Shown: in pieces, positions 14,075 to 33,568 of the stretch
Layout of the letters: every line of letters begins with the position of its first letter
Numbering within the stretch: position 1 is the stretch's first letter
Source of the DNA: Enterobacteria phage SfV
DNA: 37,074 nt
Sequence record: NC_003444
Direction: 5' to 3' (one strand)
Notes under the pieces: model-generated
The model's database searches: none
What the model saw: the letters and a program-made list of their open reading frames with translations, nothing else
Told to the model about the DNA's origin: nothing
Position numbers and translations under genes: made by a program

Positions 14075-14622
14075 TGAGGACGATTGAAGCCATGCAGCGA
14101 CAACTCCTCGGCCTGATTGGGCGGGCCGTGGTGAAAAGTATCAGTGCCGCCACGAAATGTCAGACCGTGGATGTGTCCCTGATTGCCGGTGAACCCAAAG
14201 CCGGGGTTGAACATCTTGAACCCTACGGTTTTACCGCAAGGGCAAACAGCGGTGCGGAAGCGGTGGTGTTGTTTCCGGATGGCGACCGTTCTCATGCGGT
14301 GGTTGTTACGGTGTCGGACCGGCGCTACCGCCTGAAAGGGCTGCAGACGGGTGAGGTGGCTGTCTATGACGATCAGGGGCAGTCCGTGACGCTGACCCGG
14401 GAGGGGATCGTGGTGGACGGTGCAGGTAAAACGATCACGTTTCGCAATGCACCTGAAGCACGTTTTGAAATGGACCTGGAAGTGACAGGACAGGTGAAAG
14501 ACCTGTGCGACTCCGGCGGCACCACCATGTCAGCGATGCGGCTTGCCTATAACGGCCATCGTCACAGAGAGAACGGTCAGGGCAGTAACACCGATAAACC
14601 TGATAAAGCGATGGAGGCATGA
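14074..14622 (+). CDS. baseplate assembly protein V / spike (Mu gp45-like)
   Basis: 182 aa; position and size. Confidence 0.8.
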   Translation: MRTIEAMQRQLLGLIGRAVVKSISAATKCQTVDVSLIAGEPKAGVEHLEPYGFTARANSGAEAVVLFPDGDRSHAVVVTVSDRRYRLKGLQTGEVAVYDDQGQSVTLTREGIVVDGAGKTITFRNAPEARFEMDLEVTGQVKDLCDSGGTTMSAMRLAYNGHRHRENGQGSNTDKPDKAMEA

Positions 14623-15047
14623 TGGAACTGTGGCTGACGGTGAACGGTAAACGCACCTGCGCCAGCGCACCGCTGGATCCGCTGACCCGTGCCGTGGTGA
14701 TTTCCCTGTTCACCTGGCGGCGGGCTGAACCTGATGACAATGCCGACGTCCCGATGGGATGGTGGGGGGATACCTGGCCTGCGGTACAGAATGACCGTTA
14801 CGGCTCCCGGCTGTGGCTGCTTCAGCGCAGCAAACTGACCAATCAGCTGGTGCAGACGGTAAGGGGGTATATCCGCGAATGCCTGCAATGGATGATTGAT
14901 GACGGCGTGGTGTCCCGTATTGATCTGGATATCCGCCGCACCGGGATTAATGAGCTGGGGAACAGTATCACCCTCTGGCGTCGTGACGGACCGGTAATGA
15001 TTTCTTTTGATGATCTGTGGAGTGCGATAACGCATGGCGGACAGTGA
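14619..15047 (+). CDS. baseplate protein (Mu gp46 / gp25-like)
   Basis: 142 aa; ATGA coupling; position. Confidence 0.75.
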   Translation: MMELWLTVNGKRTCASAPLDPLTRAVVISLFTWRRAEPDDNADVPMGWWGDTWPAVQNDRYGSRLWLLQRSKLTNQLVQTVRGYIRECLQWMIDDGVVSRIDLDIRRTGINELGNSITLWRRDGPVMISFDDLWSAITHGGQ

Positions 15048-16092
15048 ATTTCAGCGCCCGACGCTGGCAGAAAATATCAGTATGCTCCGTAACGATTTAT
15101 TCGCCAGGCTGGACGTCAGCGACACGCTCCGGCGCATGGATGAAGACGTGCGGGCAAAGGTGTATGCGGCGGCGCTGCATACGGTTTACGGTTACATCGA
15201 TTATCTGGCAATGAACATGCTGCCTGACCTGTGCGATGAGTCCTGGCTGGCGCGACATGCTGCGATGAAACGGTGTCCGCGCAAGGGGGCCACGGCTGCC
15301 AGCGGGTATATGCGCTGGGAAGGTGTCAGCGATGGCCTGAAGGTGACCGCCGGGAGTGTTATTCAGCGCGATGACCTGGTGCAGTACACGGCAACTGCCG
15401 ATGCAATCAGCTCCGGTGGTGTCCTGCGCGTGCCGATCGCCTGCTCAAGTGCAGGCGCGGTCGGTAACGCTGACGACGGTACGTCATTAATCCTGGTCAC
15501 GCCGGTGAATGGTCTGCCGTCTTCCGGCGTGGCAGATACACTGACAGGTGGATTTGATACTGAAGAGCTGGAAACGTGGCGCGCCCGCGTCATTGAGCGG
15601 TATTACTGGACGCCTCAGGGCGGGGCTGACGGGGACTATGTCGTCTGGGCTAAAGAAGTTCCCGGCATTACCCGCGCATGGACATACCGACACTGGATGG
15701 GAACGGGAACTGTCGGTGTGATGATTGCCAGCAGTGACCTGATTAATCCCATTCCGGAAGAATCAACGGAAACGGCGGCAAGACAACACATTGAGCCACT
15801 GGCCCCGGTGGCAGGCTCTGATTTGTATGTATTCAGGCCGGTGGCGCATAAAGTGGATTTTCATATCCGCGTGACGCCGGACACACCGGAAATACGGGCT
15901 GCCATCACCGCGGAGTTGCGTTCGTTCCTGCTGCGTGATGGTTATCCGCAGGGAGAACTGAAGGTATCGCGTATCAGTGAGGCGATTTCCGGTGCGAACG
16001 GGGAATACAGCCATCAGTTGCTTGCCCCGGCGGACAATATCTCCATTGCAAAAAATGAACTGGCGGTTCTGGGGACGATTTCATGGACGTGA
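15034..16092 (+). CDS. baseplate J-like protein (Mu gp47-like)
   Basis: 352 aa; position. Confidence 0.85.
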
Positions 16093-16667
16093 CAAACGAT
16101 GATTACATCCGCCTGTTATCGGCACTGTTGCCGCCCGGTCCTGCATGGTCAGCCAGCGATCCGGCGATTGCCGGTGCGGCACCTTCATTAACCCGCGTTC
16201 ATCAGCGTGCGGATGCCCTGATGCGGGAGCTGGATCCGCGCACCACCACTGAACTGATAAACCGCTGGGAGCGTCTGTGCGGTCTGCCGGATGAATGTAT
16301 TCCGGCGGGAACGCAGACCCTTCGCCAGCGTCAGCAACGGCTGGATGCGAAGGTTAACCTGGCGGGCGGCATCAATGAGGATTTTTACCTTGCACAGCTT
16401 GCTGCCCTGGGCAGACCAGACGCCACCATCACGCGATACGACAAAAGCACGTTCACCTGCTCATCGGCCTGTACTGACGCGGTGAATGCGCCGGAATGGC
16501 GGTATTACTGGCAGGTCAACATGCCAGCTGCCACCAACACCACCTGGATGACATGTGGCGATCCCTGTGATTCCGCGCTGCGTATCTGGGGCGACACCGT
16601 TGTCGAGTGTGTGCTTAACAAACTCTGCCCGTCGCATACCTACGTAATTTTTAAATATCCGGAGTAA
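16083..16667 (+). CDS. tail protein (Mu gp48-like, DUF2313)
   Basis: 194 aa, Cys-containing; position between baseplate J and tail fibre. Confidence 0.7.
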
Positions 16668-16670
16668 TCC

Positions 16671-17321
16671 ATGCATCGTATAGACACGAAAACCGCGCAG
16701 AAGGATAAGTTCGGCGCGGGTAAGAACGGTTTTACCCGTGGTAACCCCCAGACAGGCACGCCTGCCACCGATCTGGATGATGACTACTTTGACATGTTGC
16801 AGGAAGAACTCTGCAGCGTGGTGGAGGCATCCGGGGCCAGTCTGGAGAAGGCGCAGCACGACCAGCTGCTTACCGCGCTTCGTGCGCTGCTGTTAAGCCG
16901 CAAGAATCCGTTTGGCGATATCAAATCGGATGGCACGGTGAAAACGGCTCTCGAAAACCTTGGTTTGGGAGAAGCGGCAAAACGGGATATAGGGACAGGG
17001 GCAAATCAGATACCTGATATGAGTTTATTCGCGTCAATTAATACCGTAACGGCTGCTGCGCAAAAATTTCCGTCCGGATTAGTTTTACAGTGCGGTCAGT
17101 TGAATGGTGCCCCGAATGTATCTTCAACATACGGGATGAAGTTCCCGATGACGTTCTCAAGAGTCATTGCTGTCGTAGTTACATTAAACGTTACTGGCGC
17201 GGCAGGGCAGCCGACTGTATCGGCGACAAATGTCCAGAACACTGGATTTGATATTACTGTGTCGCCTGGTTCAGGATACGGCGCATCTGCTGATGCGTAT
17301 TACATTGCAATGGGATATTAA
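16671..17321 (+). CDS. tail fibre protein (short)
   Basis: 216 aa; N-terminus [22 protein letters not shown] resembles conserved tail-fibre N-terminal domains; followed by assembly chaperone. Confidence 0.75.
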
Positions 17322-17325
17322 CGAA

Positions 17326-17733
17326 ATGTCATATTTTTATTCTGCATCGACAAACGGATTTTATTCGACTGAATTTCACGGCACCAATATTCCTGATGAT
17401 GCAGTGGAAATCTCGGAATCAGAATGGGAAACATTGATTAATTCACAGGGTGTAACAAAAATGATTACCTGTGGTGAGAACGGTCATCCTGTCATTGTTG
17501 ACCGTCCTTCTCCAACACCAGAACGATTAGCCTTAATAAATGATGAAAAGAAATCTGCACTGATAGCAGAGGCAACGAATGTAATAGCTCCGCTTCAGGA
17601 TGCGGTTGATTTAGGTATGGCAACAGATGATGAAACGAAACTGTTACTGGCATGGGAAAAATATCGGGTGCTATTGATGCGTGTTGATATAAAAAATACA
17701 GAGTGGCCGAAAAAACCAGAGGGAAATAAATAA
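17326..17733 (+). CDS. tail fibre assembly protein (Tfa-like)
   Basis: ATG 17326 (MSYFYSASTNGFY...), 135 aa; typical Tfa N-terminus; position. Confidence 0.75.
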   Translation: MSYFYSASTNGFYSTEFHGTNIPDDAVEISESEWETLINSQGVTKMITCGENGHPVIVDRPSPTPERLALINDEKKSALIAEATNVIAPLQDAVDLGMATDDETKLLLAWEKYRVLLMRVDIKNTEWPKKPEGNK

Positions 17734-17857: not shown

Positions 17858-19111
17858 TTAAGGCTGTTTTTTTATTAATGTCATCGTCCATCCTGCAGGG
17901 TTGAACTTGAAAGAATACGATTCTCCTGGTGCTAAACTTTCAAATTTTTTAACTTGCTCTTTCCACCCGTAATCTGGGAGTGGGGTAAGATTGAAAAAAT
18001 ATAAACATGAGATTAACGATGTTGTATATAATATCCATGGTAGGAATTTAAAGTCCAACTGGGAAATATGGTTTAAGAAGTAAACCAATACAGAGTACCA
18101 TATAATTGTTGGTATGACAGAATATCTTCCCCCGCCATGAATTAATAATGGCCATTGCTCACTTGTAGAAGAAAGCATTGGTTTTGCTAGTGAAAACGTT
18201 AATGTTAGTATTGCGAAAACTATTGCCGAGCGCATGGGGTAATTGGAAACAATAAATGTAAAAATAGTGATGGAAAGACAAATCATTGTAATTGCAATGC
18301 AAATTGAATCATGATTCCATAAAGGTGGCAAAAAGTCACCATTAGCCCATAAACCCAGAAAAACCTTTGTTGTTAATATTTTGCAAAGTGTTGCGAAATT
18401 AGCTCCAAGAACCATATCAACTCTGGTCTCAGAGGATGTCATGATAATAGAAATAAATTGAATCAAACAAATAGCAATGAAAACGTATTCGTGAGTGGTG
18501 ATTTTTTTTGTAGATAAGCGTTTTTGTATAAGTATATTTATCCCTACCATTGGAGCCATGAACACTATAAATGGGCCACTTAGTCCACATATGATTATCG
18601 CTATATAATCGTGTGCTTTTTGATAATTATTTGTAGGCTTTGGAGCTAACATAACAAGAAGTAAATATAGTGATAAATACCAATGATCATTAGTAACATT
18701 GGCGTGCACTTCTGATACTTCCGGCATTGTTATAATAAACAAAGCAGTAAATATTCTTGGTGTTATGTTTACGTAACTAAATCTTCCAGAGAGTATGAAA
18801 GATACAAGCAATGCCCTAACAATAATTGCGGAGATGTTAAAAATTAAAGGGGCATACATTAAATTAAAATTTAATGATATGGAGGCAATAAGTTTTGATA
18901 TGGTTTGATAATATCCATTTTGAGGGAATATCATTGATGTGAATATCCCATTATTGTATGCCATAGCATACCATACATGAGCATCTTCTGCCCAAAACTG
19001 CGGTGCTCTGATTATATCAGGACGGCGCAAATACATCAAAATAACTGCAATGAAAAATACACCAATTAAGAAAAATAGTTTTTTTACATATGATGTTTTA
19101 AGGCTTTTCAT
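17858..19111 (-). CDS. gtrC: serotype-specific O-antigen glucosyltransferase GtrC (type-specific Gtr; matches my memory of 417-aa GtrV)
   Basis: 417-aa polytopic membrane protein directly downstream of gtrB; third gene of a gtrA-gtrB-gtr(type) cassette. Confidence 0.75.
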
Positions 19112-20031
19112 TTTTGTTTCTCATTTTTGATGATGTATTTTGGGCGATGTTTGCTTTCAATATAGATTCTGCCTATATATTCACCGAGAACACCAATCCC
19201 GATCAGTTGCACTCCACCCAAGAAAAGTATTGATACAAGCAGGGAGGGATACCCGCGTACTGGGTTACCAAAGACAAGGGTGTCTATAATCATCCATGCA
19301 CCATATAAAAATGAAATGCTTGCAACAAACAAACCTATATAAGTCCATACGCGAAGAGGAAAGGTTGAAAAACTTGTGATACCTTCCAGTGCCAGATTCC
19401 ATAATTTCCAGCCATTAAATTTTGAGATGCCAGCAACGCGCTCTGCGCGTACATATTCAACGACATCTGTCTGACCACCCACCCAGCTCAGTATGCCTTT
19501 CATGAAAAGATTGCGCTCAGGCAACAGTTTAATGTTCTCCACAACCTCACGAGACATGAGTCGAAAATCTCCGACATTTTCCTCGATCTTTGGGGTGCTT
19601 ATTTTGTTGTGTAACTTATAGAACCACTCAGCTGTCTTACGTTTCAGTCGTCCATCAGTTGAGCGGTCTGAACGTTTAGCAAGCACCATGTCAGCACCTG
19701 CCTGCCACTTTTCAATAAGATGAGGGATGACCTCAATAGGATCTTGCAGGTCGACATCAATAGGAATTACAGCATCGCCGCTTGCATGGTCTAACCCTGC
19801 AAATAAGGCTGGTTCTTTACCAAAGTTGCGTGTAAATGACAGCGGAACAACTAGTGGGTCTGAAACAGCCAGCGCGTTAATAATTGACTCTGTGGCATCT
19901 TTACTTCCGTCATTTATGAATACAATTTCTACTTCATATGGCTTCAACTCTTGGAATTCACGTACCGTTTTATAGAAAACAGGTATCGCTTCTTCTTCAT
20001 TGAAGACAGGAACGACAAGAGATATTTTCAT
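19108..20031 (-). CDS. gtrB: bactoprenol glucosyltransferase GtrB (GT2 family)
   Basis: 307 aa; N-terminal GT2 signature ([15 protein letters not shown]...INDGSKD) plus C-terminal transmembrane helices. Confidence 0.9.
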
Positions 20032-20390
20032 TTCGCATCCCTAAAGACAATGAACTTTGAATAGACGAAACCGCACACCAGACTGATGGCGGAGAAGGTG
20101 ATAAGAGTGACTATTGGAGGAAGTGAGCATTTATCAGCTGCCCAACCAACAATCACACTCAATATTCCCATAAATCCCACGTATAACATGTAGCGCATCG
20201 CTGTAGTCGATGCTTTGAATGTGAATCTTGCATTCGCGAAGAAGCTAAAGCTCACAGCCACTACGAAACCTGTGAAGTTTGCCAGAGCCTGACTGGTATG
20301 TGCGGCATAGATACATACACCAAAAACCACCCAGTGTATAAGTGTGTTCAGCACACCTATAGATGTGTACTTTACAAATAACTTTAACAT
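20028..20390 (-). CDS. gtrA: GtrA flippase-like membrane protein
   Basis: 120 aa, four predicted TM segments, ATGA-coupled upstream of gtrB. Confidence 0.85.
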
Positions 20391-20651: not shown

Positions 20652-21815
20652 TTACACATCATTAGTACCTTCCTTATTTTTTGACTGGGACGAATTTGGG
20701 ACCGATGGGTTCAGGATCGAGTCTATTTGCCGTGCGTGTTCGGTAAGGTGATTAGGTGCAAGGTGAGCATATCGACGAACCATTTCGATAGACTCCCAGC
20801 CTCCCATTTCCTGTAACACTGACAACGGGACTCCGGCTTGACCCAGCCAACTTGCCCAGGTGTGTCTCAAGTCGTGAAATCTGAAATCATCAATACCAGC
20901 CCGTCTCAGCGCCGCTTTCCAGGCTGTGTTTGCGTCATACCGCATCTCCCTTACTGTTGGCGCTTTCGTTCCGTCTGGTTTGGTACAGCTTTCCTTGTAC
21001 ACAAATACCCAACGGTGATGATTCCCGATTTGTTTTTTCAAAACGCGACATGCAGTATCATTCAGCGCAACGCCAATTGCGCGGTTTGATTTACTCTCTT
21101 CCGGGTTTATCCATGCCACCCGGCGCTGCATGTCTATTTGTTGCCATTCAAGGTTGATGATGTTCGAGCGTCTTAAGCCTGTTGCCAGTGCAAATTCAAC
21201 AACAGACTTTAATGGCTCCGGACATTCATCAATCAGCCTTTGTGCTTCATGGGGCTCCAGCCAGCGGATCCGTTTATTCTTTGGTTGAGGCACTTTAATA
21301 ATTGGTGCCTTATCCAGCATTTTCCATTCACGCTCTGCGGCTCTTAGTAGGGCCTTTATAAATGAAAGATGCGTAGCCTTCGTTGCAACGGACGCTGGTT
21401 TTGGCGTGTATTCTGGAACAGGTTTCCCTTTTTTCCTGCATGCTTCTGCCCTGAGTCTCCAGTTTTCCTCATGACGCCGGTTCGTCATTTTCTGGATTGC
21501 TGAATAAATTTTTGATTCAGTAATGTCTCTTAGTTGCATTCCTGCGAAATGTTGAAGCCAGAATCCGATCCGGCTTTTGTCATCGTCCAGTGATTTTTGA
21601 TGTGCTTTCTCTTCAAGCCACCTGACACACGCTTCCTCGAACGTTATATCAGGTATTTCACCAAGTTTGCTGACCCGCCATGCTTCAGCCTTTAGCTTGT
21701 CATGGAGTTCTGTCGCCTGCCTTTTGTCCTTTGTTCCAAGAGACTGTTTAAATCTTTTACCGTTCGGCAATGTGAAACTGGCGTACCATATTTCACCTCT
21801 GCGGAAGAGTGACAT
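20652..21815 (-). CDS. int: tyrosine integrase (site-specific recombinase)
   Basis: 387 aa; C-terminal catalytic region [10 protein letters not shown]...RRYAHL with the tyrosine; SD AGAGGAAA upstream; adjacent to attP. Confidence 0.9.
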
Positions 21816-22042
21816 TTTCTTTCCTCTGTTATGCCATCACCCGCGCTCACCTGGACAGTATGCAGCGGAGACTGAAGAGCCGCAATGCAGGCTTGTCGTG
21901 TTGTGAGGTAAGGAGATTTACTCTTAGTGGGATCTTTGCGTGTTGCCTGAAGACGCCCTGTGCGTATCCAGTTAATGGCAGTCGGTCTGGATATCTTGAG
22001 AAAATCACAGGCCTCATCGAGTGTGAGGCTGTATGGCTCCAT
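21692..22042 (-). CDS. xis: excisionase (AlpA/Xis-type HTH)
   Basis: ORF 21692..22126; ATG at 22042 ([31 protein letters not shown]); overlaps int start by ~120 nt. Confidence 0.65.
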
Positions 22043-22347
22043 TATTTCACCTCTTGCTGTGACATTGTTGAAAAATGGATACCAGCTCGTTGCTGCCAGA
22101 CGATCCAACCGAGAGTCATATCCCATGCCATGTATTCGTTATCGCCGTTTTTTGCTCTCCGACGATCTACTAAGTCACCGAAACGCTTTTCCATGAATAA
22201 TTCATAAGCTTCGCGTTCATCTGGTTCTACTTCCAGAGATAGGAGTGCGATTTCATAAGCACGGCGCTCAATATCGTCTCGCACGTCAAGGCTGCTGATA
22301 CGCTCTTTAATTTCTTTAATCAGTTCTTTGTCGGTAAAAGTGGTCAT
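22042..22347 (-). CDS. hypothetical acidic protein (YfdT-like by memory)
   Basis: 101-aa ORF, stop overlaps xis start (TAATG). Confidence 0.5.
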   Translation of the reverse strand: MTTFTDKELIKEIKERISSLDVRDDIERRAYEIALLSLEVEPDEREAYELFMEKRFGDLVDRRRAKNGDNEYMAWDMTLGWIVWQQRAGIHFSTMSQQEVK

Positions 22348-23363: not shown

Positions 23364-24188
23364 TCAGGCGGTGAAAGTACCAATAAAGGTTTCTACTTTG
23401 CTGTCCTTGAATTTCTCAACAAGCAGATCACGAAATTCGTTAGCCATTTCTTCCTGCACCGCCTCCAGCTGAATAATGCGCAGAACCAGTACCGGACGAT
23501 CGCCAGTGATAATGCTGAGGCGTAATTTAAACGGACGTTCTTTCAGACCTTCAAACGGAATGCATTTAAATTCAAATGCCACTGGCATAATGTCTTTGGT
23601 CTTCGCTTCGACAGACTCCATCAGGGAGCGTTTGCCGCTGAAGTCATTATCTTCAAAATCAGCGGTCTGGTTTGCTTCAATCGTGATTTTACGGACCGCC
23701 GCAGCCGCTTTTGTTGCCTGAATGGTGTCACCATTAGCATCAAAGCCCACAAGGTAGTCGGCCCAGTCTTCAATCCATTCTGCCAGTGATTTCTGGGAGT
23801 TACGCTCGCCATTAACAGACAACAGAGCAGAGAACGGTGCTGTCTTTTTCAGTTTGAGAGTGGCGGTGTTATCTGCGTGACCTGGTTCATCAATAGTACC
23901 CAGGTTAAGCACACTGACGGCACGCATATTATCAGCATCGATAAAGCAGCGGGTGCCTTCATCTGCAAGATCTTTAGAATAACGGGTAAAGTCATCGATG
24001 CTGGCAGTGGAAAGCGCACCACGGAAACGGAAGCGATTTAAATTAAATTTTTCCAGATCATGAATGCGGAAATTCTCAGGCAATGCCACAGCATCGGCAC
24101 CAATCTTACTGATAATTTCATTAACACCCTGAGCAGAAATAAGGGCATGGATTTGATTAATTGCGGTTGCGTCTAAGTTCTGAGACAT
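23364..24188 (-). CDS. DUF2303 / YfdQ-like protein
   Basis: 274-aa ORF; same length as E. coli YfdQ by memory. Confidence 0.6.
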
Positions 24189-24253: not shown

Positions 24254-24616
24254 TTAATGACCTGCTGCGCGGAGTTTTCCGTCAGGTTCACCGGCAAGAG
24301 TCAGTAATTGTCCCTGGTCTTCCTGCAGAATAGTCAAGCGACCACCGCGATTGACATACATCGGCGTTTCGGTGGTGTCTTCTTCGGAAATTTTCCCGCG
24401 GTTAGTCGGGCGAACATATGAGAGTTTGTGTTTGATTTTCACACGGTTCTCATCAAATGGTTCGATTTCCAGGTTGAGTGAGACCTTACCTTTGGTTTTC
24501 GTGTTCATCACACCGGAAGCGACTTCACTGAGAACTGCGCCGATTTTGGTTTCAAATACGCCGCCGTCCAGCTCCCCGATAAATGCCTGCACATCAGTAC
24601 TGCGTTCGCTAGCCAT
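24254..24616 (-). CDS. YfdP-like hypothetical protein
   Basis: ORF 24254..24934; start placed at ATG 24616 (MASERSTDVQ...) with GAGGAG upstream, giving 120 aa; the N-terminal extension of the track ORF runs into a non-coding-looking region. Confidence 0.55.
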   Translation of the reverse strand: MASERSTDVQAFIGELDGGVFETKIGAVLSEVASGVMNTKTKGKVSLNLEIEPFDENRVKIKHKLSYVRPTNRGKISEEDTTETPMYVNRGGRLTILQEDQGQLLTLAGEPDGKLRAAGH

Positions 24617-24666
24617 TTTGCTGCTCCTCATCATATCGACCCTGCAAGGCCGATTAGTTTCTCCAC

Positions 24667-24798
24667 AAAACAGAGAAGAACACCTGCGGTGGCAGCCGCC
24701 CGGATGGATTGGGTTATGAGCCCGTCGTCCGGTGATGCTCTTCTCTGTTTTGTAAAAAGGACGGTACCAGCCGGAAGCAAGGGTACAAACTGGTACCG
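24667..24798. ncRNA. candidate structured RNA element (function unknown)
   Basis: 12-bp perfect inverted repeat aaaacagagaag/cttctctgtttt (24667-24678 / 24740-24751) enclosing nested GC hairpins; 9-bp stem cggtaccag/ctggtaccg (24762-24770 / 24790-24798) followed on the minus strand by a T5 run; no convincing ORF. Confidence 0.3.
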
Positions 24799-25053
24799 CC
24801 AGGACTACACACAGCATAAAGTTGTGGTGCCGGGTGCCTCCCGGTGCCTGGCGAAGGTTGCACACCAGACGGGTGGGTATCCACAGAAGGTCGACTGTCA
24901 GCCTCAACCTTAACCCGCGTGCGCTGAGCCGCATTCACCACAACGCTAAGGATTCTCTTTGGTTGAAAATACTTAGCTGTTATGTGCCTGTCTTTTCACC
25001 ACTTCAGGCTCGGTGGTATCCTTTTAAGCCCGTATACATAAAAGGAAAATCAA

Positions 25054-25299
25054 ATGACTTTTGATGAAAAAGAACTTGATAATGCAATTAATAAAATCAT
25101 CGTAACGTCGCTCTTTTCCTGTCTCAGCGACACTCAGCAGAAACAGTTCTACGAATCGGCTTTCAACATGATCGAGCGTTGTTGTTTCTGCGATGCCGAC
25201 GAGTTACCTGAAAAAATCAGGAAACAGTTGGCTGATGCTCTTCGAGTGCGACTTTCTGACCAATTTTCTGAAATGTGCTCTCCGAATTTGGACAAATAG
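25054..25299 (+). CDS. hypothetical protein, 81 aa, antisense to the pL transcript
   Basis: ATG 25054 preceded by AAGGA; Cys-containing (CCFCD); 3' end overlaps the convergent ORF by 83 nt. Confidence 0.4.
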   Translation: MTFDEKELDNAINKIIVTSLFSCLSDTQQKQFYESAFNMIERCCFCDADELPEKIRKQLADALRVRLSDQFSEMCSPNLDK

Positions 25300-25492
25300 A
25301 AAAAGGCCATTTCCATTCAGGGTCTGATGGAAAGACTTCAGCCTGTTCCAAAGCACGGCGTAAAGAGAACACAACTCCAGCCATAATCTGATGTTTCCCA
25401 TTGGTCCAGCTATCGCCGCTCTGATCTACAGGGGCGGCTATGTCGTATGACCAAACGACTTCACAGTTATTGTTTAAAATCTGGACTTTCAT
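25217..25492 (-). CDS. hypothetical protein, 91 aa, first ORF downstream of pL
   Basis: ORF 25217..25513; ATG at 25492 (MKVQILNNN...) with AGCAGGTG upstream; not Arg-rich, so not N-like. Confidence 0.45.
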   Translation of the reverse strand: MKVQILNNNCEVVWSYDIAAPVDQSGDSWTNGKHQIMAGVVFSLRRALEQAEVFPSDPEWKWPFSICPNSESTFQKIGQKVALEEHQPTVS

Positions 25493-25612
25493 TTCATACA
25501 CCTGCTTTAACATGAGTACCTAGTGGCACAACATGACTCAACGAATCATCCTGGACTTCATATGCCCCAGGCGGCTACTTCGTGGGCGTCCTGCCTGTTT
25601 GTTGTTTCTCTT

Positions 25613-25646
25613 GGGTACATTATGTATCTCATGGGTACATTGTCAA
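25613..25646 (-). promoter_or_regulatory. pL-like early-left promoter with operator half-sites
   Basis: Minus strand TTGACA (25646-25641), 16-nt spacer, CATAAT (25624-25619); repeated gggtacat motifs (25613-25620, 25633-25640) overlap the promoter. Confidence 0.5.
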
Positions 25647-25685: not shown

Positions 25686-26360
25686 TTAGGCTTTGATTTT
25701 GTATCTTCTTGGTTTTCCTGAGAAAATCACCGTTCCAATTATAGAGCAATTACCGTTGATCTTAATGTAAGGCTCAGGCCAGTTTGGGTTTAACGCTTTG
25801 AGATAACGCTGTGTCCCATCTTCTATCAACCTTTTGAAGGTGGTTTCACCTGTATCGTGCATCAATGCAATAACGTCGTCACCGTGGCAGGCAGGTACTT
25901 CAGGATCGACAAAAATCATGTCTCCCGGGCGGTACTCATCAATCATTGAATCACCTATCACCCGTAAGATATAAGTCATTTCCCCACAGGGTACAGGGCA
26001 GGGATACGTTTCTGCTGTGCTCAAATCAACCTCAGAATATCCAACTTCTTTCCATGCTCCGGCCTGTACCCATGATATGACAGGGACTAATGTGATTTGT
26101 TTATTAGTGATTGAAACATCAGGTTTTTTTGTGATGTTCGTTGTCTGGTGTTCTTGATCGAGCCATCCGACAGGCAGGTCGAAACATTTTTCGATGTGTC
26201 GTGCCATGCTGTCACCGATATTTTTAGTAGCACCATCTCCCATAAACCTGCTGGTCTGGGTTGGCTCGCGATCAATCATGGTGGCAAAGGAAGAATTCCC
26301 GCCAACACCATCTCTCAGTTTTCTGGCGTTAGACCGCCGGATGTCATGGACTGTTTTCAT
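25686..26360 (-). CDS. cI: CI-type repressor (HTH plus S24 LexA-like autopeptidase domain)
   Basis: 224 aa; C-terminal S24 domain with GDSM serine motif and a conserved lysine downstream; divergent from cro across an operator region. Confidence 0.9.
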   Translation of the reverse strand: MKTVHDIRRSNARKLRDGVGGNSSFATMIDREPTQTSRFMGDGATKNIGDSMARHIEKCFDLPVGWLDQEHQTTNITKKPDVSITNKQITLVPVISWVQAGAWKEVGYSEVDLSTAETYPCPVPCGEMTYILRVIGDSMIDEYRPGDMIFVDPEVPACHGDDVIALMHDTGETTFKRLIEDGTQRYLKALNPNWPEPYIKINGNCSIIGTVIFSGKPRRYKIKA

Positions 26361-26447: not shown

Positions 26448-26460
26448 TGTATGAAAGCGT

Positions 26461-26651
26461 ATTGGGACTCTTTAACCAAAGAACAGCAGGGCGAGTTGGC
26501 CGGAAAAGTTGGCTCAACACCAGGCTACTTACGGCTAGTTTTCAATGGTTATAAAAAAGCCAGTTTTGTGCTGGCTAAAAAACTTGAGCAATGCACGTCA
26601 GGTGCAATTACGAAATCTGACTTAAGACCGGATATCTATCCGAAAGATTAA
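26461..26651 (+). CDS. cro: Cro-like repressor (YdaS/Cro HTH)
   Basis: ATG 26461 after GGAGG; 63 aa; first gene rightward of the operator region. Confidence 0.75.
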
Positions 26652-26682: not shown

Positions 26683-27246
26683 ATGAGGCTAACCGTGGGT
26701 AAGCATCACTGGAAAGTAGAAAAACAGCCTGAGTGGTACGTGAAAGCTGTCAGAAAAACTATCGCGGCGTTGCCGGGGGGTTACGCTGAAGCTGCTGAGT
26801 GGCTGGATGTAACAGAGAACGCTTTATTCAACCGCCTTCGTGCAGATGGCGATCAGATTTTCCCGCTGGGATGGGCAATGATTTTACAGCGCGCGGCTGG
26901 CACTCACTACATTGCGGATGCTGTCGCACAGTCTGCTGGTGGGGTGTTTGTATCGCTTCCTGAAATTGAGGAAGTAGAGAACGCCGATATAAACCAGCGC
27001 CTGCTGGAAGTCATCGAACAGATCGGGAGTTACTCAAAGCAGATTCGTTCGGCAATCGAAGATGGGGTAGTGGAGCCACACGAGCAGACAGCAATTAATG
27101 ATGAGTTGTATCTGTCAATTTCGAAGCTCCAGGAGCATGCAGCACTGGTCTACAAAATCTTTTGCGCTCCAGAAAAGAGTGACGCCCGCGAGTGTGCAGC
27201 TCCGGGCGTCGTGGCGTTTTGTGTCTGTGGAGAAACTAACGCATGA
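26683..27246 (+). CDS. CII-like regulatory protein (phage 186-type CII family, tentative)
   Basis: 187-aa ORF immediately after cro; family assignment from memory only. Confidence 0.5.
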   Translation: MRLTVGKHHWKVEKQPEWYVKAVRKTIAALPGGYAEAAEWLDVTENALFNRLRADGDQIFPLGWAMILQRAAGTHYIADAVAQSAGGVFVSLPEIEEVENADINQRLLEVIEQIGSYSKQIRSAIEDGVVEPHEQTAINDELYLSISKLQEHAALVYKIFCAPEKSDARECAAPGVVAFCVCGETNA

Positions 27247-28079
27247 ACAGTTTAACGGCAAATAACCGTTTGTCGCAACAGCTGGTGGTCAGCGTCGCTG
27301 AACACCTGTTGTTACGGCATGAATGCAGATTACCAAATCACCTGGCTGTAAGTAACCACAGAGAACTTTACCTGACTGTGGGGGGCGAGTTGTGCAGGAA
27401 CTTAACCGCTGGTTTCGTGACGGAAGAGGACTTTATGTTCATGTTATTCGTTGGGAGCCAGAAACACAGCGCGTTATCTATCTTCGCAAAGACTACCCGC
27501 ATGAGTGCTTTAGTCCTTTGTGGAAATTCAGGCGTGATTTTGTTGAGTGTGAAGGACCACCAGCACATTGATTCTGCCATTCCGGGACGTTACACTGTTC
27601 AGGCACCTTATAAAGCGGGTGCCGGGATTGGCGTCCTGGAATTGATCAAGGCGATATATGACGCGCCAGCGTCTTTTTTATCGTCCGCATTTGCTCACAT
27701 CAAAGTTATGGTGGGCTGGGCGGGGGCATCGAAAGATGCGCCGGTTTCCTTGATCACCGGTTACGCCAACCCCGTTCAGTTCACCACCAGCGAAATTGCC
27801 GTTTCCGGTGGTGGAAGTATTTCACCGATCAAGGAGGCTGCCATCATGGCTACTGTCCCAGCCCTCACTCGTCTGAATGATGAAGACTTACATAAACTCA
27901 GTTATGTAACAACTGCACTACGTGCTCTGCGCAAGGTAACTCTTTCGGATCCCCAGGCGCATCAGGTTTTGGTAGAAACCCTTCTTAACTTGCAGGCTGA
28001 ACGTATTCGTCTGGCGGATAAGGCTAATTTTCATATTCACCGTCTCCTGAATATCAGCGGAGGGCATCGTCATGCTTAA
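27243..28079 (+). CDS. hypothetical protein (gene model uncertain)
   Basis: 278-codon ORF with ATGA coupling to the upstream gene; strong internal AAGGAGG-ATG at 27846; alternative-frame GTG ORF 27392..27571. Confidence 0.4.
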   Translation: MNSLTANNRLSQQLVVSVAEHLLLRHECRLPNHLAVSNHRELYLTVGGELCRNLTAGFVTEEDFMFMLFVGSQKHSALSIFAKTTRMSALVLCGNSGVILLSVKDHQHIDSAIPGRYTVQAPYKAGAGIGVLELIKAIYDAPASFLSSAFAHIKVMVGWAGASKDAPVSLITGYANPVQFTTSEIAVSGGGSISPIKEAAIMATVPALTRLNDEDLHKLSYVTTALRALRKVTLSDPQAHQVLVETLLNLQAERIRLADKANFHIHRLLNISGGHRHA

Positions 28080-28308
28080 TCCGTTGAGCCTCAATATTCG
28101 CCGTTTACTTCAGCGTAAAAAAACATCAATTCCTACAGTTGGGCAGTGGTACACCACGCCTGCAGGGCATGTTCTACGTGTTAGCCTGGTTGACCGTGAA
28201 TGTCAGAAAGTGATTTGTGAACCGCTGGGCCGTAATTACCGCGTCAGTATGCCGCTTATAACCTTTCGCTCCGAAAAAAACATGAAGCATCTCGGAGGTG
28301 CAGCATGA
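28072..28308 (+). CDS. hypothetical protein
   Basis: 78-aa ORF overlapping neighbours at both ends; no recognisable motif. Confidence 0.45.
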   Translation: MLNPLSLNIRRLLQRKKTSIPTVGQWYTTPAGHVLRVSLVDRECQKVICEPLGRNYRVSMPLITFRSEKNMKHLGGAA

Positions 28309-29123
28309 GTATGGAGCTGATGGTTAAAGCGATGAAAATTCGAGTGGGTAATCCATTGCGAAAACTGGTTCTGATCAAGCTGGCTGATAATGCCAGCGAT
28401 CAGGGTGAGTGCTGGCCCAGCTATCAGCATATCGCTGATCAGTGCGAGATTAGCAAACGTTCTGTGATGAATCATATTGCGGCCCTCTGTGAGTCCGGGC
28501 TGGTAAAAAAAGTCACCCGGAAAGGTGAAAAAGGTAACTCAAGTAATATCTATCTCCTTCATCTGGATGGTGCAGGAGATTCACTAGGGGGTAGTGCAAA
28601 TAATTCACTATCTGGTGCAGCAAATTCACCAGGTAGTGCAGGAGTTGCACCAGGGGGTAGTGCAGGAGATTCACCCAGAACCAGTCACTCTTTTGAACCA
28701 GTCAAAGAACCAGTCAATGAACCAATAGCTGTTGGTGCATCAGTTGATGAGTCCGTGCGAGTTCGTTCAAACCGACCGGAATACTCTCCGGAGTTTGAGC
28801 AGGCATGGCTGGCATATCCCAAACGTGCTGGTGGCAATTCAAAATCTGCAGCCTTCAAAGCCTGGAAAGCCCGTTTGAACGAGGGAGTAAACCCCGAAAC
28901 CATGCTGGAAGGTGTGAAACGCTACGCGGGCTGGGTATCTGCGATGGGCAATAGCGGCACACAATTTGTGAAACAGGCTGTCACGTTCTTTGGTCCAGAT
29001 CGTCATTTCGAAGAATCCTGGGAAGTTCCTGCGGTATCTGCAGCCAGACGCGAGGACCCGTACTTCAAAGCCAGTTACGACAACGTGGACTACAGCCAGA
29101 TCCCGGCAGGATTCAGGGGGTGA
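28305..29123 (+). CDS. replication initiation protein (lambda O-like, N-terminal HTH)
   Basis: 272 aa; N-terminal HTH replisome-organiser-like region; internal repeat-encoded low-complexity linker (iterons); position after cII. Confidence 0.7.
   Translation: MSMELMVKAMKIRVGNPLRKLVLIKLADNASDQGECWPSYQHIADQCEISKRSVMNHIAALCESGLVKKVTRKGEKGNSSNIYLLHLDGAGDSLGGSANNSLSGAANSPGSAGVAPGGSAGDSPRTSHSFEPVKEPVNEPIAVGASVDESVRVRSNRPEYSPEFEQAWLAYPKRAGGNSKSAAFKAWKARLNEGVNPETMLEGVKRYAGWVSAMGNSGTQFVKQAVTFFGPDRHFEESWEVPAVSAARREDPYFKASYDNVDYSQIPAGFRG
28569..28716. repeat. iteron-like direct repeats inside the replication gene (candidate origin)
   Basis: ggtgcaggagattcac at 28569 and 28660; gggggtagtgca at ~28587 and ~28654; gaaccagtca three times (28678, 28695, 28707). 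Confidence 0.5.
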
Positions 29124-29614
29124 TCATGAGTCTTTTGAATGAAGTTCAGAAATTCATTGAAGCCCATCCGGGGTGTACTTCCGGAGACATTGCGGATGCT
29201 TTTGCAGGTTACTCACGGCAGCGCGTTCTGCAGTCAGCAAGCAAGTTACGTCAGAGTGGGCGTGTGGTTCACCGTTGTGAAGAGGATACACGCAGACATT
29301 TCCCGCGCCTGACTGAGAGAGCGCAGGAGCCGGAACCACAACCAGTTCGTGAAACCAGACCTGTGCGCAATTTCTATGTCGGCACTAACGATCCCCGGGT
29401 GATTTTGTGCCTGACCCGCCAGGCTGAAGAACTGGAGTCAAGGGGCTTATACCGTCGTGCTGCAACGGTGTGGATGGCGGCATTCCGTGAAAGCCACTCC
29501 CAGCAAGAGCGAAACAATTTTCTTGCGCGTCGTGAGCGGTGCTTACGGAAAAGCAGCAAGCGCGCTGCATCGGGTGATGAGTGGTATCTGTCAGGGAATT
29601 ACGTGGGGGCTTAA
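29120..29614 (+). CDS. PerC-like regulator domain protein
   Basis: 164 aa; C-terminal AEELESRGLYRRAATVWMAAF...RRERCL resembles the PerC-family signature from memory. Confidence 0.45.
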   Translation: MIMSLLNEVQKFIEAHPGCTSGDIADAFAGYSRQRVLQSASKLRQSGRVVHRCEEDTRRHFPRLTERAQEPEPQPVRETRPVRNFYVGTNDPRVILCLTRQAEELESRGLYRRAATVWMAAFRESHSQQERNNFLARRERCLRKSSKRAASGDEWYLSGNYVGA

Positions 29615-30267
29615 TGAGTAATAAATATTGCCAGGCGCTGGTGGAACTGCGGAACAAACCAGCCCATGAACTGAAGGAAGTGGGTGATCAGTGGCGCACG
29701 CCGGACAACATTTTCTGGGGAATTAACACCCTGTTTGGCCCGTTTGTTCTGGATCTGTTCACTGACGGTGATAACGCCAAATGTGCCGCGTATTACACGG
29801 CGGAAGACAACGCGCTGGCGCATGACTGGTCAGAACGCCTTGCGGAGCTTAAAGGTGCTGCCTTTGGTAATCCTCCATACAGCCGCGCCAGTCAGCATGA
29901 GGGGCAATACATCACCGGCATGCGTTACATCATGAAACATGCCAGTGCCATGCGTGATAAGGGCGGGCGCTATGTTTTCCTGATCAAAGCTGCCACCAGC
30001 GAAGTGTGGTGGCCGGAAGATGCAGATCATATTGCTTTTATTCGCGGGCGTATTGGTTTTGAACTGCCTGTCTGGTTTATCCCGAAAGACGAGAAGCAGG
30101 TACCGACAGGAGCTTTTTTCGCTGGTGCTATTGCTGTTTTTGACAAGACCTGGAAGGGACCGGCAATCAGCTACATCGGGCGCGATGAACTTGAGGCATG
30201 TGGTGAGGCGTTTCTGGCGCAGGTTCGCCAGCAGGCGGAAAAACTGGTCAGGGAGATGGTGGCATGA
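29614..30267 (+). CDS. phage-type DNA N6-adenine methyltransferase (Dam-like)
   Basis: ORF 29581..30267; ATG 29614 overlaps upstream stop (TAATG); catalytic NPPY motif (FGNPPYS). Confidence 0.8.
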   Translation: MSNKYCQALVELRNKPAHELKEVGDQWRTPDNIFWGINTLFGPFVLDLFTDGDNAKCAAYYTAEDNALAHDWSERLAELKGAAFGNPPYSRASQHEGQYITGMRYIMKHASAMRDKGGRYVFLIKAATSEVWWPEDADHIAFIRGRIGFELPVWFIPKDEKQVPTGAFFAGAIAVFDKTWKGPAISYIGRDELEACGEAFLAQVRQQAEKLVREMVA

Positions 30268-30590
30268 CGACGTTAACTCAATGCCAGCAGCAGGTGCTGG
30301 ATATGCTGATTTCTTATCAGAAAGAACGTGGCTTCCCGCCAACCAATCAGGAGGTGGCAACCATGCTGGGATACCGTTCAGTGAATGCAGCGGTGGAGCA
30401 TCTTCGCGCACTGGAGAAAAAAGGCATCATCACGATAAAGCGTGGCGTGGCCCGGGGGATCACGCTTCATACCGCGGTGAAGGACGACGACAGCGAGGCT
30501 GTCGGGATTATCCGCTCACTGCTTGCCGGTGAGGAAAACGCCAGGCTGCGTGCAACCCACTGGTTACATAAGAGGGGCCTGAAAGTATGA
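30264..30590 (+). CDS. LexA N-terminal DNA-binding-domain protein lacking a peptidase domain
   Basis: 108 aa; residues 4-70 align by eye with the LexA winged-helix DBD; no S24 domain; ATGA-coupled on both sides. Confidence 0.7.
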   Translation: MTTLTQCQQQVLDMLISYQKERGFPPTNQEVATMLGYRSVNAAVEHLRALEKKGIITIKRGVARGITLHTAVKDDDSEAVGIIRSLLAGEENARLRATHWLHKRGLKV

Positions 30591-30976
30591 AGCTGATCCT
30601 GCCTTTCCCGCCCAGCGTGAACACGTACTGGCGACACCCCAACAAAGGGGCGTTTGCAGGTAAGAGCCTAATAAGCGCGGCGGGGCGAAAATTTCAGAGC
30701 GCGGCGTGCGCAGCAATAGTTGAACAGTTACGTCGTCTGCCGAAACCAACGTCGGCACCTGCTTCAGTGGAGATCGTGTTGTTTCCTCCGGATAACAGGA
30801 TCCGCGATCTGGACAACTATAACAAGGCGCTGTTTGACGTTCTGACCCACGCGGGTGTGTGGGAAGACGACAGCCAGGTGAAAAGAATGCTGGTGGAGTG
30901 GGGACCGGTTATCCCGGAAGGGAAGGTCGAGATCACTATCAGTAAGTACGAGAAAACGGCGGGTGCAGCCGCCTGA
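30587..30976 (+). CDS. rusA: Holliday-junction resolvase RusA
   Basis: 129 aa; N-terminus MKLILPFPPSVNTYWRH and conserved acidic residues typical of RusA. Confidence 0.9.
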   Translation: MKLILPFPPSVNTYWRHPNKGAFAGKSLISAAGRKFQSAACAAIVEQLRRLPKPTSAPASVEIVLFPPDNRIRDLDNYNKALFDVLTHAGVWEDDSQVKRMLVEWGPVIPEGKVEITISKYEKTAGAAA

Positions 30977-30995
30977 GCAAGAGGAGAAACGAAGT

Positions 30996-31805
30996 ATGAA
31001 TAATCTGATGGTCATTGATGGTATTGAAGTTCGTCGTGATGCTTATGGGCGTTACAGCCTGAACGATCTGCACAGGGCAGCCGGGGGAGAACAAAAAAAC
31101 CGCCCGAAATACTGGCTCTCCAATAAGCAAACCTGTGAATTGATTGAACAACTTTTCACCGAGGGTGGAATTCCGCCTCTGGAACAAAATCAACCAGTTA
31201 GCGTCATTAATGGCGGAAATAACCAGGGGACGTATGTCTGCAAAGAACTGGTGTATGCCTATGCAATGTGGATCAGCCCGTCATTCCATCTGAAGGTGAT
31301 CCGTACTTTCGATATGGTAACCAGCACACCGGAAAAATTATCCGGGCAGGCTGCTGACAAGATGCAGGCTGGAGTGATTCTGCTGGACTTTATGCGCAGG
31401 GAGTTAAACCTGTCTAACTCTTCAGTGCTTGGGGCCTGTCAGAAACTCCAGGAGGCTGTTGGCTTACCGAATCTGGCACCGCGCTATGCCATTGATGCTC
31501 CTGCTGATGCACACGATGGCTCAAGTCGCCCGACACTGTCACTGAGTGCACTGCTGAAACAGTATGGTATCCGCCTGACGGCTAATCAGGCATATCACCA
31601 GATGGTGAAGCTGGGGATCGTCGAGCAGCGCGAACGATACAGCCGTACCGGGATTAACAACATCAAAAAATTCTGGTCGCTGACGGCGAAAGGCTGCATG
31701 TTCGGCAAGAACATCACCAGTCCCGCAAATCCGCGCGAGACGCAGCCGCATTTCTTCGAATCCCGATTCCCTGAGCTGTTAAAGCTGCTCGATACCGTTC
31801 ATTGA
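30996..31805 (+). CDS. KilA-N domain protein (antirepressor-like)
   Basis: ORF 30963..31805; ATG 30996 after GAGGAG; N-terminal KilA-N-like region. Confidence 0.7.
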   Translation: MNNLMVIDGIEVRRDAYGRYSLNDLHRAAGGEQKNRPKYWLSNKQTCELIEQLFTEGGIPPLEQNQPVSVINGGNNQGTYVCKELVYAYAMWISPSFHLKVIRTFDMVTSTPEKLSGQAADKMQAGVILLDFMRRELNLSNSSVLGACQKLQEAVGLPNLAPRYAIDAPADAHDGSSRPTLSLSALLKQYGIRLTANQAYHQMVKLGIVEQRERYSRTGINNIKKFWSLTAKGCMFGKNITSPANPRETQPHFFESRFPELLKLLDTVH

Positions 31806-31806
31806 G

Positions 31807-32802
31807 GTGACCGTGAGAGCACTACTGACCCCTGAAATTGCCCCGCGTATGGGGATCGTATTGTTCAGGCCAGGTTCAGAGCTGATGCCCCTGTTTATGC
31901 AGGGGCGTGTCCTGCTGGAGCCTGAGCCAGAACGTTATTCATCTTTCGCCAGTGGTGCCGTTCCGGCGGCATCACAACCGCTGGCGGATGATCCTGCCGT
32001 TCGGGCCGTGTTCCGCAATGAGGCAGTGATCCGTCGTGCTGGTGGCGTGGAATGTCTTGAAAGCTGGTTACTTCGTGAAAAAGGCTGCCAGTGGCCTCAT
32101 TCCGACTGGCACAGCGAGAACATGACCACAATGCGACACGCTCCGGGCGCAATCCGTCTGTGCTGGCACTGCGATAACCAGCTGCGCGATCAGTTCACGG
32201 AACGGCTGGAATCAATGGCAACGGATAACTGTGCCCGCTGGGTGTTGTCTGTAGTCCGTCGGGATCTCGGTTTTGATGATAACCATGCCGTGACAATGCC
32301 GGAACTGTGCTGGTGGCTGATTCGTAATGACCTCGCGGATGCCTTACCTGAAAGCGCAGCCCGTAAGGCGCTGAGATTACCGAAACCTGTTGTGCCGTCT
32401 GTCACCCGGGAAAGTGACCTTGTGCCTTCGGTTCCTGCCACCAGCATCATCCAGGATAAAGCGAAAAAGGTGCTGGCGCTGAAAGTGGATCCGGAGTCGC
32501 CGGAGTCTTTTATGTTACGCCCAAAACGCCGCCGCTGGGTTAATGAAAAGTACACGCGCTGGGTTAAGACACAGCCGTGTGCATGTTGTGGAAAGCCTGC
32601 TGATGATCCCCACCACCTGATAGGCCACGGTCAGGGTGGAATGGGTACAAAAGCGCATGACCTCTTTGTGTTGCCTTTGTGCAGAAAGCATCACGACGAG
32701 CTGCATGCGGATACCGTGGCATTTGAAGAGAAGTATGGCTCTCAGCTGGAGCTGATATTTCGTTTTATCGATCGTGCGCTGGCAATTGGCGTATTGGCGT
32801 AA
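31807..32802 (+). CDS. Cys/His-rich nin-region protein (DUF968-like)
   Basis: 331-aa ORF (start uncertain, GTG 31807); C-terminal CACCGKPADDPHHLIGHG...CRKHHDELH metal-binding-like motif. Confidence 0.5.
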   Translation: MTVRALLTPEIAPRMGIVLFRPGSELMPLFMQGRVLLEPEPERYSSFASGAVPAASQPLADDPAVRAVFRNEAVIRRAGGVECLESWLLREKGCQWPHSDWHSENMTTMRHAPGAIRLCWHCDNQLRDQFTERLESMATDNCARWVLSVVRRDLGFDDNHAVTMPELCWWLIRNDLADALPESAARKALRLPKPVVPSVTRESDLVPSVPATSIIQDKAKKVLALKVDPESPESFMLRPKRRRWVNEKYTRWVKTQPCACCGKPADDPHHLIGHGQGGMGTKAHDLFVLPLCRKHHDELHADTVAFEEKYGSQLELIFRFIDRALAIGVLA

Positions 32803-32815
32803 GTGGAGAACGAGC

Positions 32816-33568
32816 ATGAACCTTGAAGCCTTACCAAAATATTACTCCCCAAAATCTCCAAAATTGAGCGATGACGCACCGGCGACAGGCTCAGGTGGTT
32901 TAACGATTACGGATGTGATGGCTGCGCAGGGGATGGTGCAGTCGAAAGCACCGCTTGGGTTTGCCTTATTCCTGGCAAAAGTTGGTGTTCAGGATCCTCA
33001 ATTTGCGATTGAAGGTCTGCTCAATTACGCGATGGCACTGGATAACCCGACATTGAACAAATTGAGTGAAGAAACCCGGTTACAGATCATCCCTTACCTT
33101 GTGAATTTTGCCTTTGCTGATTATTCCAGGTCTGCGGCAAGTAAGGCTCGCTGTGAGCATTGTGCTGGTACTGGATTTCATAATGTATTGCGCGAAGTGG
33201 TGAAACACTCCAGAAGCGGGGAATCTGTTATCAAGGAAGAGTGGGTGAAGGAACTATGTCAGCATTGTCATGGTAAGGGAGAAGTCAGCACAGCGTGCAG
33301 AGGGTGTAAGGGTAAAGGTATTGTCCTGGATGAAAAAAGGACCCGGCTTCATGGCACACCTGTTTATAAGATTTGTGGGCGTTGCAATGGAAACCGGTTT
33401 AGCCGTTTACCAACCACACTGGCGCGGCATCATGTCCAGAAGCTGGTACCAGACCTGACAGATTATCAGTGGTACAAAGGATATGCAGATGTCATTGATA
33501 AACTGGTTACAAAGTGCTGGCAGGAAGAAGCATATGCTGAGGCGCAATTAAGAAAAGTGACGAGATAA
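32816..33568 (+). CDS. late-gene antiterminator Q (zinc-finger type)
   Basis: ORF 32774..33568; ATG 32816 after GGAG; four CxxCxG motifs; immediately upstream of the late promoter and lysis genes. Confidence 0.75.
   Translation: MNLEALPKYYSPKSPKLSDDAPATGSGGLTITDVMAAQGMVQSKAPLGFALFLAKVGVQDPQFAIEGLLNYAMALDNPTLNKLSEETRLQIIPYLVNFAFADYSRSAASKARCEHCAGTGFHNVLREVVKHSRSGESVIKEEWVKELCQHCHGKGEVSTACRGCKGKGIVLDEKRTRLHGTPVYKICGRCNGNRFSRLPTTLARHHVQKLVPDLTDYQWYKGYADVIDKLVTKCWQEEAYAEAQLRKVTR

Follow-up and report, generated by a model that had tools for sequence, protein, structure and literature searches.

Two convergent, 3′-overlapping small genes beside the repressor of phage SfV belong to a co-inherited accessory cassette of lambdoid prophages

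Between the repressor gene and the early-left operon, lambdoid phages have an accessory slot, which is occupied by rexAB in lambda, by sieB-esc with the sas antisense RNA in P22 and by bstA in the Salmonella phage BTP1. In Enterobacteria phage SfV (NC_003444) this slot contains two small open reading frames of opposite strands, here named orfA and orfB, which converge so that their 3′ ends overlap. The question is whether both are genes and, if so, what their opposition next to the repressor could mean. The window analyzed was the whole stretch of 37,074 nucleotides, and all positions refer to it unless a locus of other origin is named.

The window is an essentially complete temperate phage of the SfII/SfIV/ST64B-like kind, with vB_EcoM-720R4, SKA5, SfII and SfIV as the closest sequenced phages. 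The structural genes run along the plus strand from about 60 to 17700, and are followed by a minus-strand block (17858–20390) whose position suggests O-antigen modification genes of the kind usual in SfII/SfIV, by an ORF in the integrase position (20652–21815) and by an HTH_17 protein (21692–22126). The early-left operon, on the minus strand, has at its end YfdQ/DUF2303 (23364–24188) together with a gene resembling yfdP, which spans 24254 to about 24616. To the right of the pair lie a LexA/S24-type repressor gene (25686–26360, minus strand), a YdaS-type Cro (26451–26651), a CP76-type CII (26683–27246) and, after the latter, the replication genes. No N-like protein was found in the 37-kb window, where the sole antiterminator is of the Q type (32774–33568, PF03589).

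Two other regions of the window deserve a comment of their own. A 430-nt G+C-rich non-coding stretch (24617–25050) contains a full-length but sub-threshold match to STnc100 (RF02076) on the minus strand, at 24751–24966, which reaches 39.5 bits where the gathering score is 47, with an E value of 1e-6; STnc100 is a prophage sRNA recently connected with the PasD sRNAs (bioRxiv 10.64898/2026.05.13.724894). A long ORF, 24254–24934, annotated as SfIV_34 in phage SfIV, runs through the region of this match, and its first 105 codons or so are probably non-coding. On the plus strand, at 27603–27791, Rfam matches to isrK (64 bits) and to C4 antisense RNA (82 bits) stand upstream of an Ash-family domain, in what looks like an antirepressor module of the P1/P7 immI-like or Gifsy-1 isrK type. 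Both matches fall within a nominal ORF of 278 aa (27243–28079), which suggests that the start of that ORF is mis-assigned.

Concerning the pair itself, orfA (25217–25492, minus strand, 91 aa) opens the early-left (pL) operon, and orfB (25054–25299, plus strand, 81 aa, ATG start) converges with it. The two frames share 83 nt (25217–25299), about 27 codons, so the convergent, 3′-overlapping pair described in the first-pass annotation is confirmed in its coordinates, protein lengths and overlap. The good ribosome-binding site attributed there to the plus-strand ORF was also recognized, as AAGGA, 8 nt upstream of the orfB ATG. An in-frame ATG further upstream, at 25513, allows a longer reading of orfA (25217–25513, 98 aa). 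From the sequence, the functional start is nevertheless taken to be the ATG at 25492, because it is preceded by an AGGTG ribosome-binding site (25503–25499), because it is the sole start common to all relatives (MKVQ...), and because a mosaic junction with vB_EcoM-720R4, where homology ends at 25494, then coincides with a gene boundary. The predicted pL is a strong sigma-70 promoter on the minus strand (25619–25646, TTGACA-N16-CATAAT, 11 of 12 matches), which carries GGTACA-type operator repeats and adjoins the terminator of the repressor gene. The pair had been placed immediately downstream of pL. This is right insofar as orfA is the first gene after the promoter, but a structured leader of 71 nt (25604–25534) lies in between.

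It must first be considered whether only one of the two ORFs is real, the other being its antisense shadow. In favor of this, the annotation pipelines disagree: PGAP calls orfA alone (WP_021563905), while RAST called orfB alone in phage 720R4. The patterns of variation make the idea scarcely credible. By the method of Nei and Gojobori, pN/pS was 0.33 for orfA (codons 1–64) and 0.27 for orfB (codons 1–59), each measured outside the conserved region of the other gene, while the antisense control frames of the same DNA gave ratios above 1 (1.70 in the orfA region and 1.41 in the orfB region). Over codons 1–64 of orfA, variation peaks at the third positions of frame A (0.42, versus 0.15 at second positions), and over the region of codons 1–59 of orfB it tracks frame B (0.48 versus 0.15). 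Counted by offset, the periodicity follows frame A over 0–192 and frame B over 261–439. The conservation of a single frame, which had been proposed as the observation that would speak against a pair, was thus not what was found, since each frame has a low pN/pS and a periodicity of its own. Both genes were intact in 176 of the 178 loci collected; in two loci only one member was broken, and each time it was orfA, with orfB intact. By these substitution patterns, then, orfA and orfB are both protein-coding genes under purifying selection. It follows from the pipeline calls that automated annotation systematically loses one member of the pair, orfB with PGAP and orfA with RAST.

The overlap is less informative than its length suggests. 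The conserved part of orfA extends from 25492 to 25238 (to ...VALEE), and the last six codons plus the stop form a variable tail, the protein ending at 91, 93 or 122 aa in different clusters of relatives. Past ...VALEE (offset 261 on), the codon periodicity is that of frame B and not that of frame A. The end of orfA is therefore unselected, selection on the proteins does not fix how far the two genes overlap, and dual-frame constraint would be limited to about 25238–25299. This segment holds a nearly invariant block of 20 nt, AGTCGCTCTCGAAGAGCCTC, and the overlap shows no codon-position periodicity. Candidate terminators were rejected on both strands. An intrinsic terminator inside orfA (25345–25300, minus strand) has an unconserved stem and a T-run that encodes the conserved WPFS motif. 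A plus-strand candidate for orfB (25582–25598, complementary to part of the leader) did not surpass shuffled sequences in folding, and its T-tract is not conserved. No convincing plus-strand terminator was found 3′ of orfB.

The two proteins were as unfamiliar as the first-pass annotation had stated. Profile and fold searches returned only PHROG 3195 for orfA (E 3.8e-65) and PHROG 3311 for orfB (E 1.2e-55), covered over their whole lengths and both annotated as of unknown function. Neither protein had a match in Pfam, NCBIfam or the PDB sequences; with PADLOC, orfA gave no match and orfB only a spurious one to SspC (E 0.035). The orfA product has a pI of 4.95 and two Arg residues in total, none of them among the first 25, with no Arg-rich motif. 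The earlier statement that it is not Arg-rich or N-like was thus borne out, and the homology to an antiterminator family that could have contradicted it did not appear in Pfam, NCBIfam or the PDB sequences. The orfB product is likewise acidic (pI 4.56). The highest 19-residue Kyte-Doolittle means, 0.89 for A and 0.80 for B, indicate the absence of hydrophobic segments, and both products are predicted to be soluble. The AlphaFold2 model of orfB (pLDDT 77.6) contains helices at residues 5–22, 26–47 and 53–75, so that the protein is predicted to be an acidic three-helix bundle, and its CCxC motif (C43, C44, C46) is invariant. A Foldseek search with this model gave no match below E 1 in PDB or BFVD. 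The model of orfA was set aside as unreliable (pLDDT 44).

An exhaustive HMMER search with the orfA profile through 1.8 billion representatives recovered only 17 relatives, none of them from outside the family. In a few relatives, such as the metagenomic proteins P0064 and P0065 (192–198 aa), the orfA domain is fused behind a domain of about 85 aa (MEFKDLP...). A similar sequence (MKFQDLP...) occurs in the locus L009 as a separate small first early gene (PHROG 9419/2151). This alternation of fusion and separate gene hints that these small early proteins may be functionally related.

The distribution of the pair is that of a unit. Prophages of E. coli, Salmonella, Klebsiella and Yersinia carry it, and its conservation as a pair in eight sequence clusters of these four genera goes well beyond coincidence. 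Homologues of orfA with 49–68% amino acid identity occupy the same position in other prophages, and those of orfB are 57–64% identical in Salmonella, Klebsiella and Yersinia, the Yersinia pair standing at 49% (A) and 59% (B). Each contig with a diverged orfA (50–68%) also had an intact orfB on the opposite strand (62–63% identity by tblastn). The contigs represent prophages that differ in immunity type, often Rac-like ones with YdaS/YdaT, and orfA again directly follows the repressor and pL. The distance from ATG to ATG is 439 nt in all eight clusters, with zero indels. The flanks vary widely, with 19 types on the left and at least 33 on the right. Recombination is free at the edges of the cassette, for instance at the orfA ATG, and none was seen between the two genes. 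In complete E. coli genomes, the cassette is present in 551 of 5426 (about 10%), O157:H7 strains included, and only as the type seen in the window. No relatives of orfB were found in the GTDB species-representative genomes. From these comparisons, orfA and orfB, which are always inherited together, appear to be a single mobile accessory cassette that circulates among lambdoid prophages, both SfII/SfIV/ST64B/e14-like ones that have LexA-type repressors and Rac-like ones that have YdaS/YdaT.

The slot is not exclusive to this cassette. SfII, SfIV and ST64B lack it despite common flanks, and carry other small convergent gene pairs in its place; in SfIV the replacement consists of a minus-strand ORF of 68 aa and SfIV_36, of 144 aa. 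In Yersinia and other loci, two convergent pairs stand in tandem. Same-slot pairs, in coordinates of their own loci, are the mentioned SfIV pair (L002, 3186–3800), ORFs of 77 and 86 aa in Yersinia (L014, 3336–3826), a 66-aa ORF with a GhoS-like one of 93 aa (L009, 3572–4050), and a 63-aa ORF with one of the ClpX zinc-finger type (L004, 3171–3793). The GhoS-like neighbor, in antisense orientation, matches PF11080 with 24.2 bits. Convergent pairs seem, then, to be a general grammar of this prophage region. The proposal that the pair is an immunity-region moron holds as to the slot, which is variable and accessory, SfIV, SfII and ST64B having other pairs there, but the suggested link to exclusion or abortive infection was not supported: neither protein matched a PADLOC system or has a membrane segment. 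The antisense regulation also suggested there is an inference from the geometry. On the K-12 map, ymfI/ymfJ of e14 are presumably in an analogous position and may be positional analogues of the pair. Nothing functional was found in the literature on a correspondence with these genes or with Rac ydaF/ydaG.

The structured leader RNA mentioned above (25534–25604, minus strand, 71 nt) stands ahead of orfA at the 5′ end of the pL transcript; it begins at 25604, the −10 of pL ending at 25619. It consists of a closing helix P1, a core AGGCAGGACGCCCACGAAGUAGCCGCC, a hairpin P3 with the loop GGCAUAUGAA and a junction GGAUGA, the stems enclosing a nearly invariant core of 27 nt. An ungapped alignment of 44 sequences showed compensatory changes in five of the six P1 pairs and in three pairs of P3, with P1 variants such as AACGAA/UUCGUU, GUCAUC/GAUGAC and CCACC/GGUGG, and a covariation score of 0.513 versus 0.131 in shuffles. 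The covariance model scored 86.6 bits at this locus and found one copy in the 37-kb window, in agreement with a pattern search. Rfam contained no match to it. A pattern scan of IMG/VR gave more than 120 leader loci, with 123 distinct variants. The leader was present in 49 phage records and downstream of many heteroimmune promoters. Phages of Escherichia, Salmonella, Klebsiella, Yersinia, Citrobacter, Pantoea, Pectobacterium, Aeromonas and Providencia carry it, and it is exactly at its 5′ edge that the flanks diverge into differing immunity regions. One subclass, with P1 as GUCAUC/GAUGAC or CCACC/GGUGG, has a second conserved block, GCGCAGCAGGU..AACGUUCCGC(C/U)GGCC, about 20–60 nt downstream of the leader (L006, L186–L188 and many others).

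The position of this RNA invites comparison with the put RNA of phage HK022, which acts in cis, by way of the zinc-binding domain of the beta′ subunit, to let RNA polymerase pass terminators. Like putL, the leader is about 70 nt long, starts a few nt after the pL start, contains paired stems and belongs to an N-less lambdoid phage. Unlike put, a cis-acting antiterminator (PMC9378689), it has a closing helix and no second, putR-like copy in the 37-kb window. It shares no sequence similarity with the HK022 nun-cI region, where blastn-short gave only chance words of 8 nt, and its covariance model found nothing in HK022 27600–31500 (best 9.2 bits, E 3.6). By its position and size, the leader is a candidate for a cis-acting antiterminator or leader element in lambdoid phages that have no N, and may explain how an early-left operon without N is transcribed. 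It is potentially more novel than the gene pair.

The distal end of the conserved cassette is marked by an H-type pseudoknot (24986–25017, minus strand; ACCAC-CGA-GCCUG-AA-GUGGU-GAAAAGA-CAGGC). The match to this pattern is unique, with 0 expected by chance. Both stems vary in a compensatory way, GCCUG/CAGGC becoming GCCGGG/CCCGGC, or CCUUA/UAAGG in L009, and ACCAC/GUGGU becoming ACCGC/GCGGU. Paired bases filled 96% of the cells, with three pairs doubly changed, as compared to 23–40% in slid controls. The loops measure 1–3 nt (L1) and 6–7 nt (L3, A-rich), and the geometry implies that those of the Yersinia variant are sterically possible on the minus strand only, that is, in the pL transcript. 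The same pseudoknot ends unrelated cassettes of convergent genes, in SfIV and in the second copies of L009, L010 and L004. One idea is that it acts as a 5′ stabilizer or insulator of the downstream early mRNA. Further matches of a generic pseudoknot scan were discarded, as they lay inside conserved coding sequence, and the strand statistics of that scan were not used. Folded as single sequences, neither the leader nor the pseudoknot region did better than shuffles, so the support for these two structures comes only from covariation.

Between the pseudoknot and the start of orfB lies a predicted hairpin, P0 (25019–25046, minus strand, UCCUUUU/AAAAGGA), with a 5′ arm complementary to the ribosome-binding site of orfB. 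It appears in the minimum free energy fold, and compensatory stems can be read from the aligned variants (UUUU/AAAA, UC/GA, UCU/AGA, UG/CA and, in Yersinia, UCUUGGU/ACCAAGA). On the plus strand, the same region contains a putative orfB promoter (24995–25022), TTCACC-N16 with an extended −10, TGGTATCCT (25014–25022). Its score is under the threshold of the promoter scan. Upstream of orfB, all clusters but L009, which has CGGTATCCT, preserve the motif TGGTATC(C/T)T, and it is preserved as well upstream of two unrelated antisense genes, one at the second copy in L009 and one in L004. Since the putative promoter overlaps the pseudoknot, its conservation is confounded with that of the latter.

The likeliest reading of the pair, which we offer tentatively and on sequence evidence, is that B would be a factor expressed in the lysogen and acting on a cytoplasmic target of the host or of a phage, and that A would be an early antagonist that replaces or neutralizes B. 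Because orfB is on the opposite strand, it is not translatable from the pL transcript. While the repressor shuts pL, orfB would be expressed from its own weak constitutive promoter, with the extended −10 just described, and its transcript would be antisense across the whole of orfA. Upon induction or infection, the firing of pL would yield a strong leftward transcript from which A is made as the first early gene, and this same transcript would silence B by polymerase collision, promoter occlusion and formation of an RNA duplex. The two small acidic cytoplasmic proteins would thereby be split between states, B being lysogenic and A lytic. Against this reading stand the low score of the predicted orfB promoter and the confounding of its conservation by the pseudoknot, the want of a convincing terminator on the plus strand, and the fact that no homology or fold match indicates an activity.

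The co-inheritance could partly reflect tight physical linkage and not a joint function, and in its full form this gives a possible, though doubtful, alternative: the two would be functionally unrelated accessory genes, overlapping because of genome compactness and kept together by their proximity. The slot does house numerous tiny ORFs, unrelated and pointing either way, most of the overlap is due to the unselected orfA tail, and neither protein has an informative similarity. It is difficult to reconcile with mere proximity that at 49–68% identity the pair was never split in eight clusters, that the 439-nt spacing suffered no indel, and that flanks which recombine at the cassette edges, as at the orfA ATG, never do so between the genes. 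It is improbable, though worth consideration, that the pair is a toxin-antidote module, with orfA as a harmful, Kil-like protein of early host takeover and orfB, through its antisense RNA, its protein or both, neutralizing leaky orfA in the lysogen. The geometry resembles that of the prophage type I systems txpA/RatA and bsrG/SR4; in both loci with one broken member, orfA was broken and orfB kept; and a GhoS-like gene (PF11080, 24.2 bits) lies in antisense in the same kind of slot. On the other hand, orfA is no small hydrophobic peptide, its highest 19-residue mean being 0.89, orfB is a protein under purifying selection and not a non-coding RNA, no toxin-antitoxin or defense profile matches either of them, and the databases hold frameshifted variants of both genes.

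Since orfA takes the position of N in a phage without N, and is flanked by structured RNAs, it could also be imagined as an unconventional early antiterminator acting on those RNA elements. This is very unlikely. The protein is acidic and, unlike lambda N, lacks an N-terminal Arg-rich RNA-binding motif; SfII and SfIV have the same pL, leader and downstream operon but no orfA; the leader and the pseudoknot are each also seen where orfA is missing; and in the 720R4-type and L009 contexts there is an orfA but no leader.

It is worth setting the pair, read as a lysogenic factor with its early antagonist, beside known systems. As in lambda, P22 and BTP1, it stands beside the repressor in a mosaic, variable site, where one gene could be expressed while pL is repressed, and P22 provides a case of antisense control in the same region. 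Unlike rexAB, sieB-esc and bstA, to which they have no relation of sequence, profile or fold, orfA and orfB encode small, acidic, soluble proteins and not membrane or large defense proteins, and they are two facing coding genes in a fixed geometry. The type I toxin-antitoxin pairs of prophages, txpA/RatA and bsrG/SR4, are likewise convergent, prophage-borne and overlapping at the 3′ ends, by about 80 nt (83 nt here, an overlap being conserved in all clusters). They differ in that the antisense partner here, orfB, is a conserved protein (with the pN/pS of 0.27 and the frame-specific periodicity given above) and in that neither product is a hydrophobic peptide. Convergent-promoter switches and antisense controls are also known, as pR/pL of coliphage 186 and oop versus cII of lambda. 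As in these, a strong lytic promoter would face a weaker transcript compatible with lysogeny, and interference would be expected; unlike them, the transcripts encode an accessory pair and not the repressor or cII decision genes. The arrangement is thus a variation on a known theme, that of accessory genes beside a prophage repressor, and what distinguishes it is the combination of two proteins, convergence, overlap and rigid geometry. As hypothetical proteins, both families were catalogued before, but the literature search turned up no account of them as a pair.

A bolder interpretation, which we regard as speculative and rather improbable, is that the early-left region of N-less prophages is assembled from portable units of three parts, in which orfA/orfB would be a new antisense-coupled module of two proteins with self-immunity. 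The leader, perhaps an undescribed cis-acting element of about 70 nt, put-like in function and unrelated to put, would make pL transcription processive. The convergent genes, such as orfA/orfB, would be a toggle between lysogeny and lysis, formed by a lysogen effector and its early antagonist. Lastly, the pseudoknot would protect the early mRNA downstream of it from the antisense transcript, by insulating or stabilizing it.

As to the meaning of these results, roughly one in ten complete E. coli genomes carries, beside a prophage repressor, a cassette whose proteins resemble nothing characterized. A strictly co-inherited pair on opposite strands is a test case of how prophages partition their accessory functions between lysogeny and lytic growth. 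If the leader proves to be an antiterminator, it would explain early-left transcription in a large group of N-less lambdoid phages.
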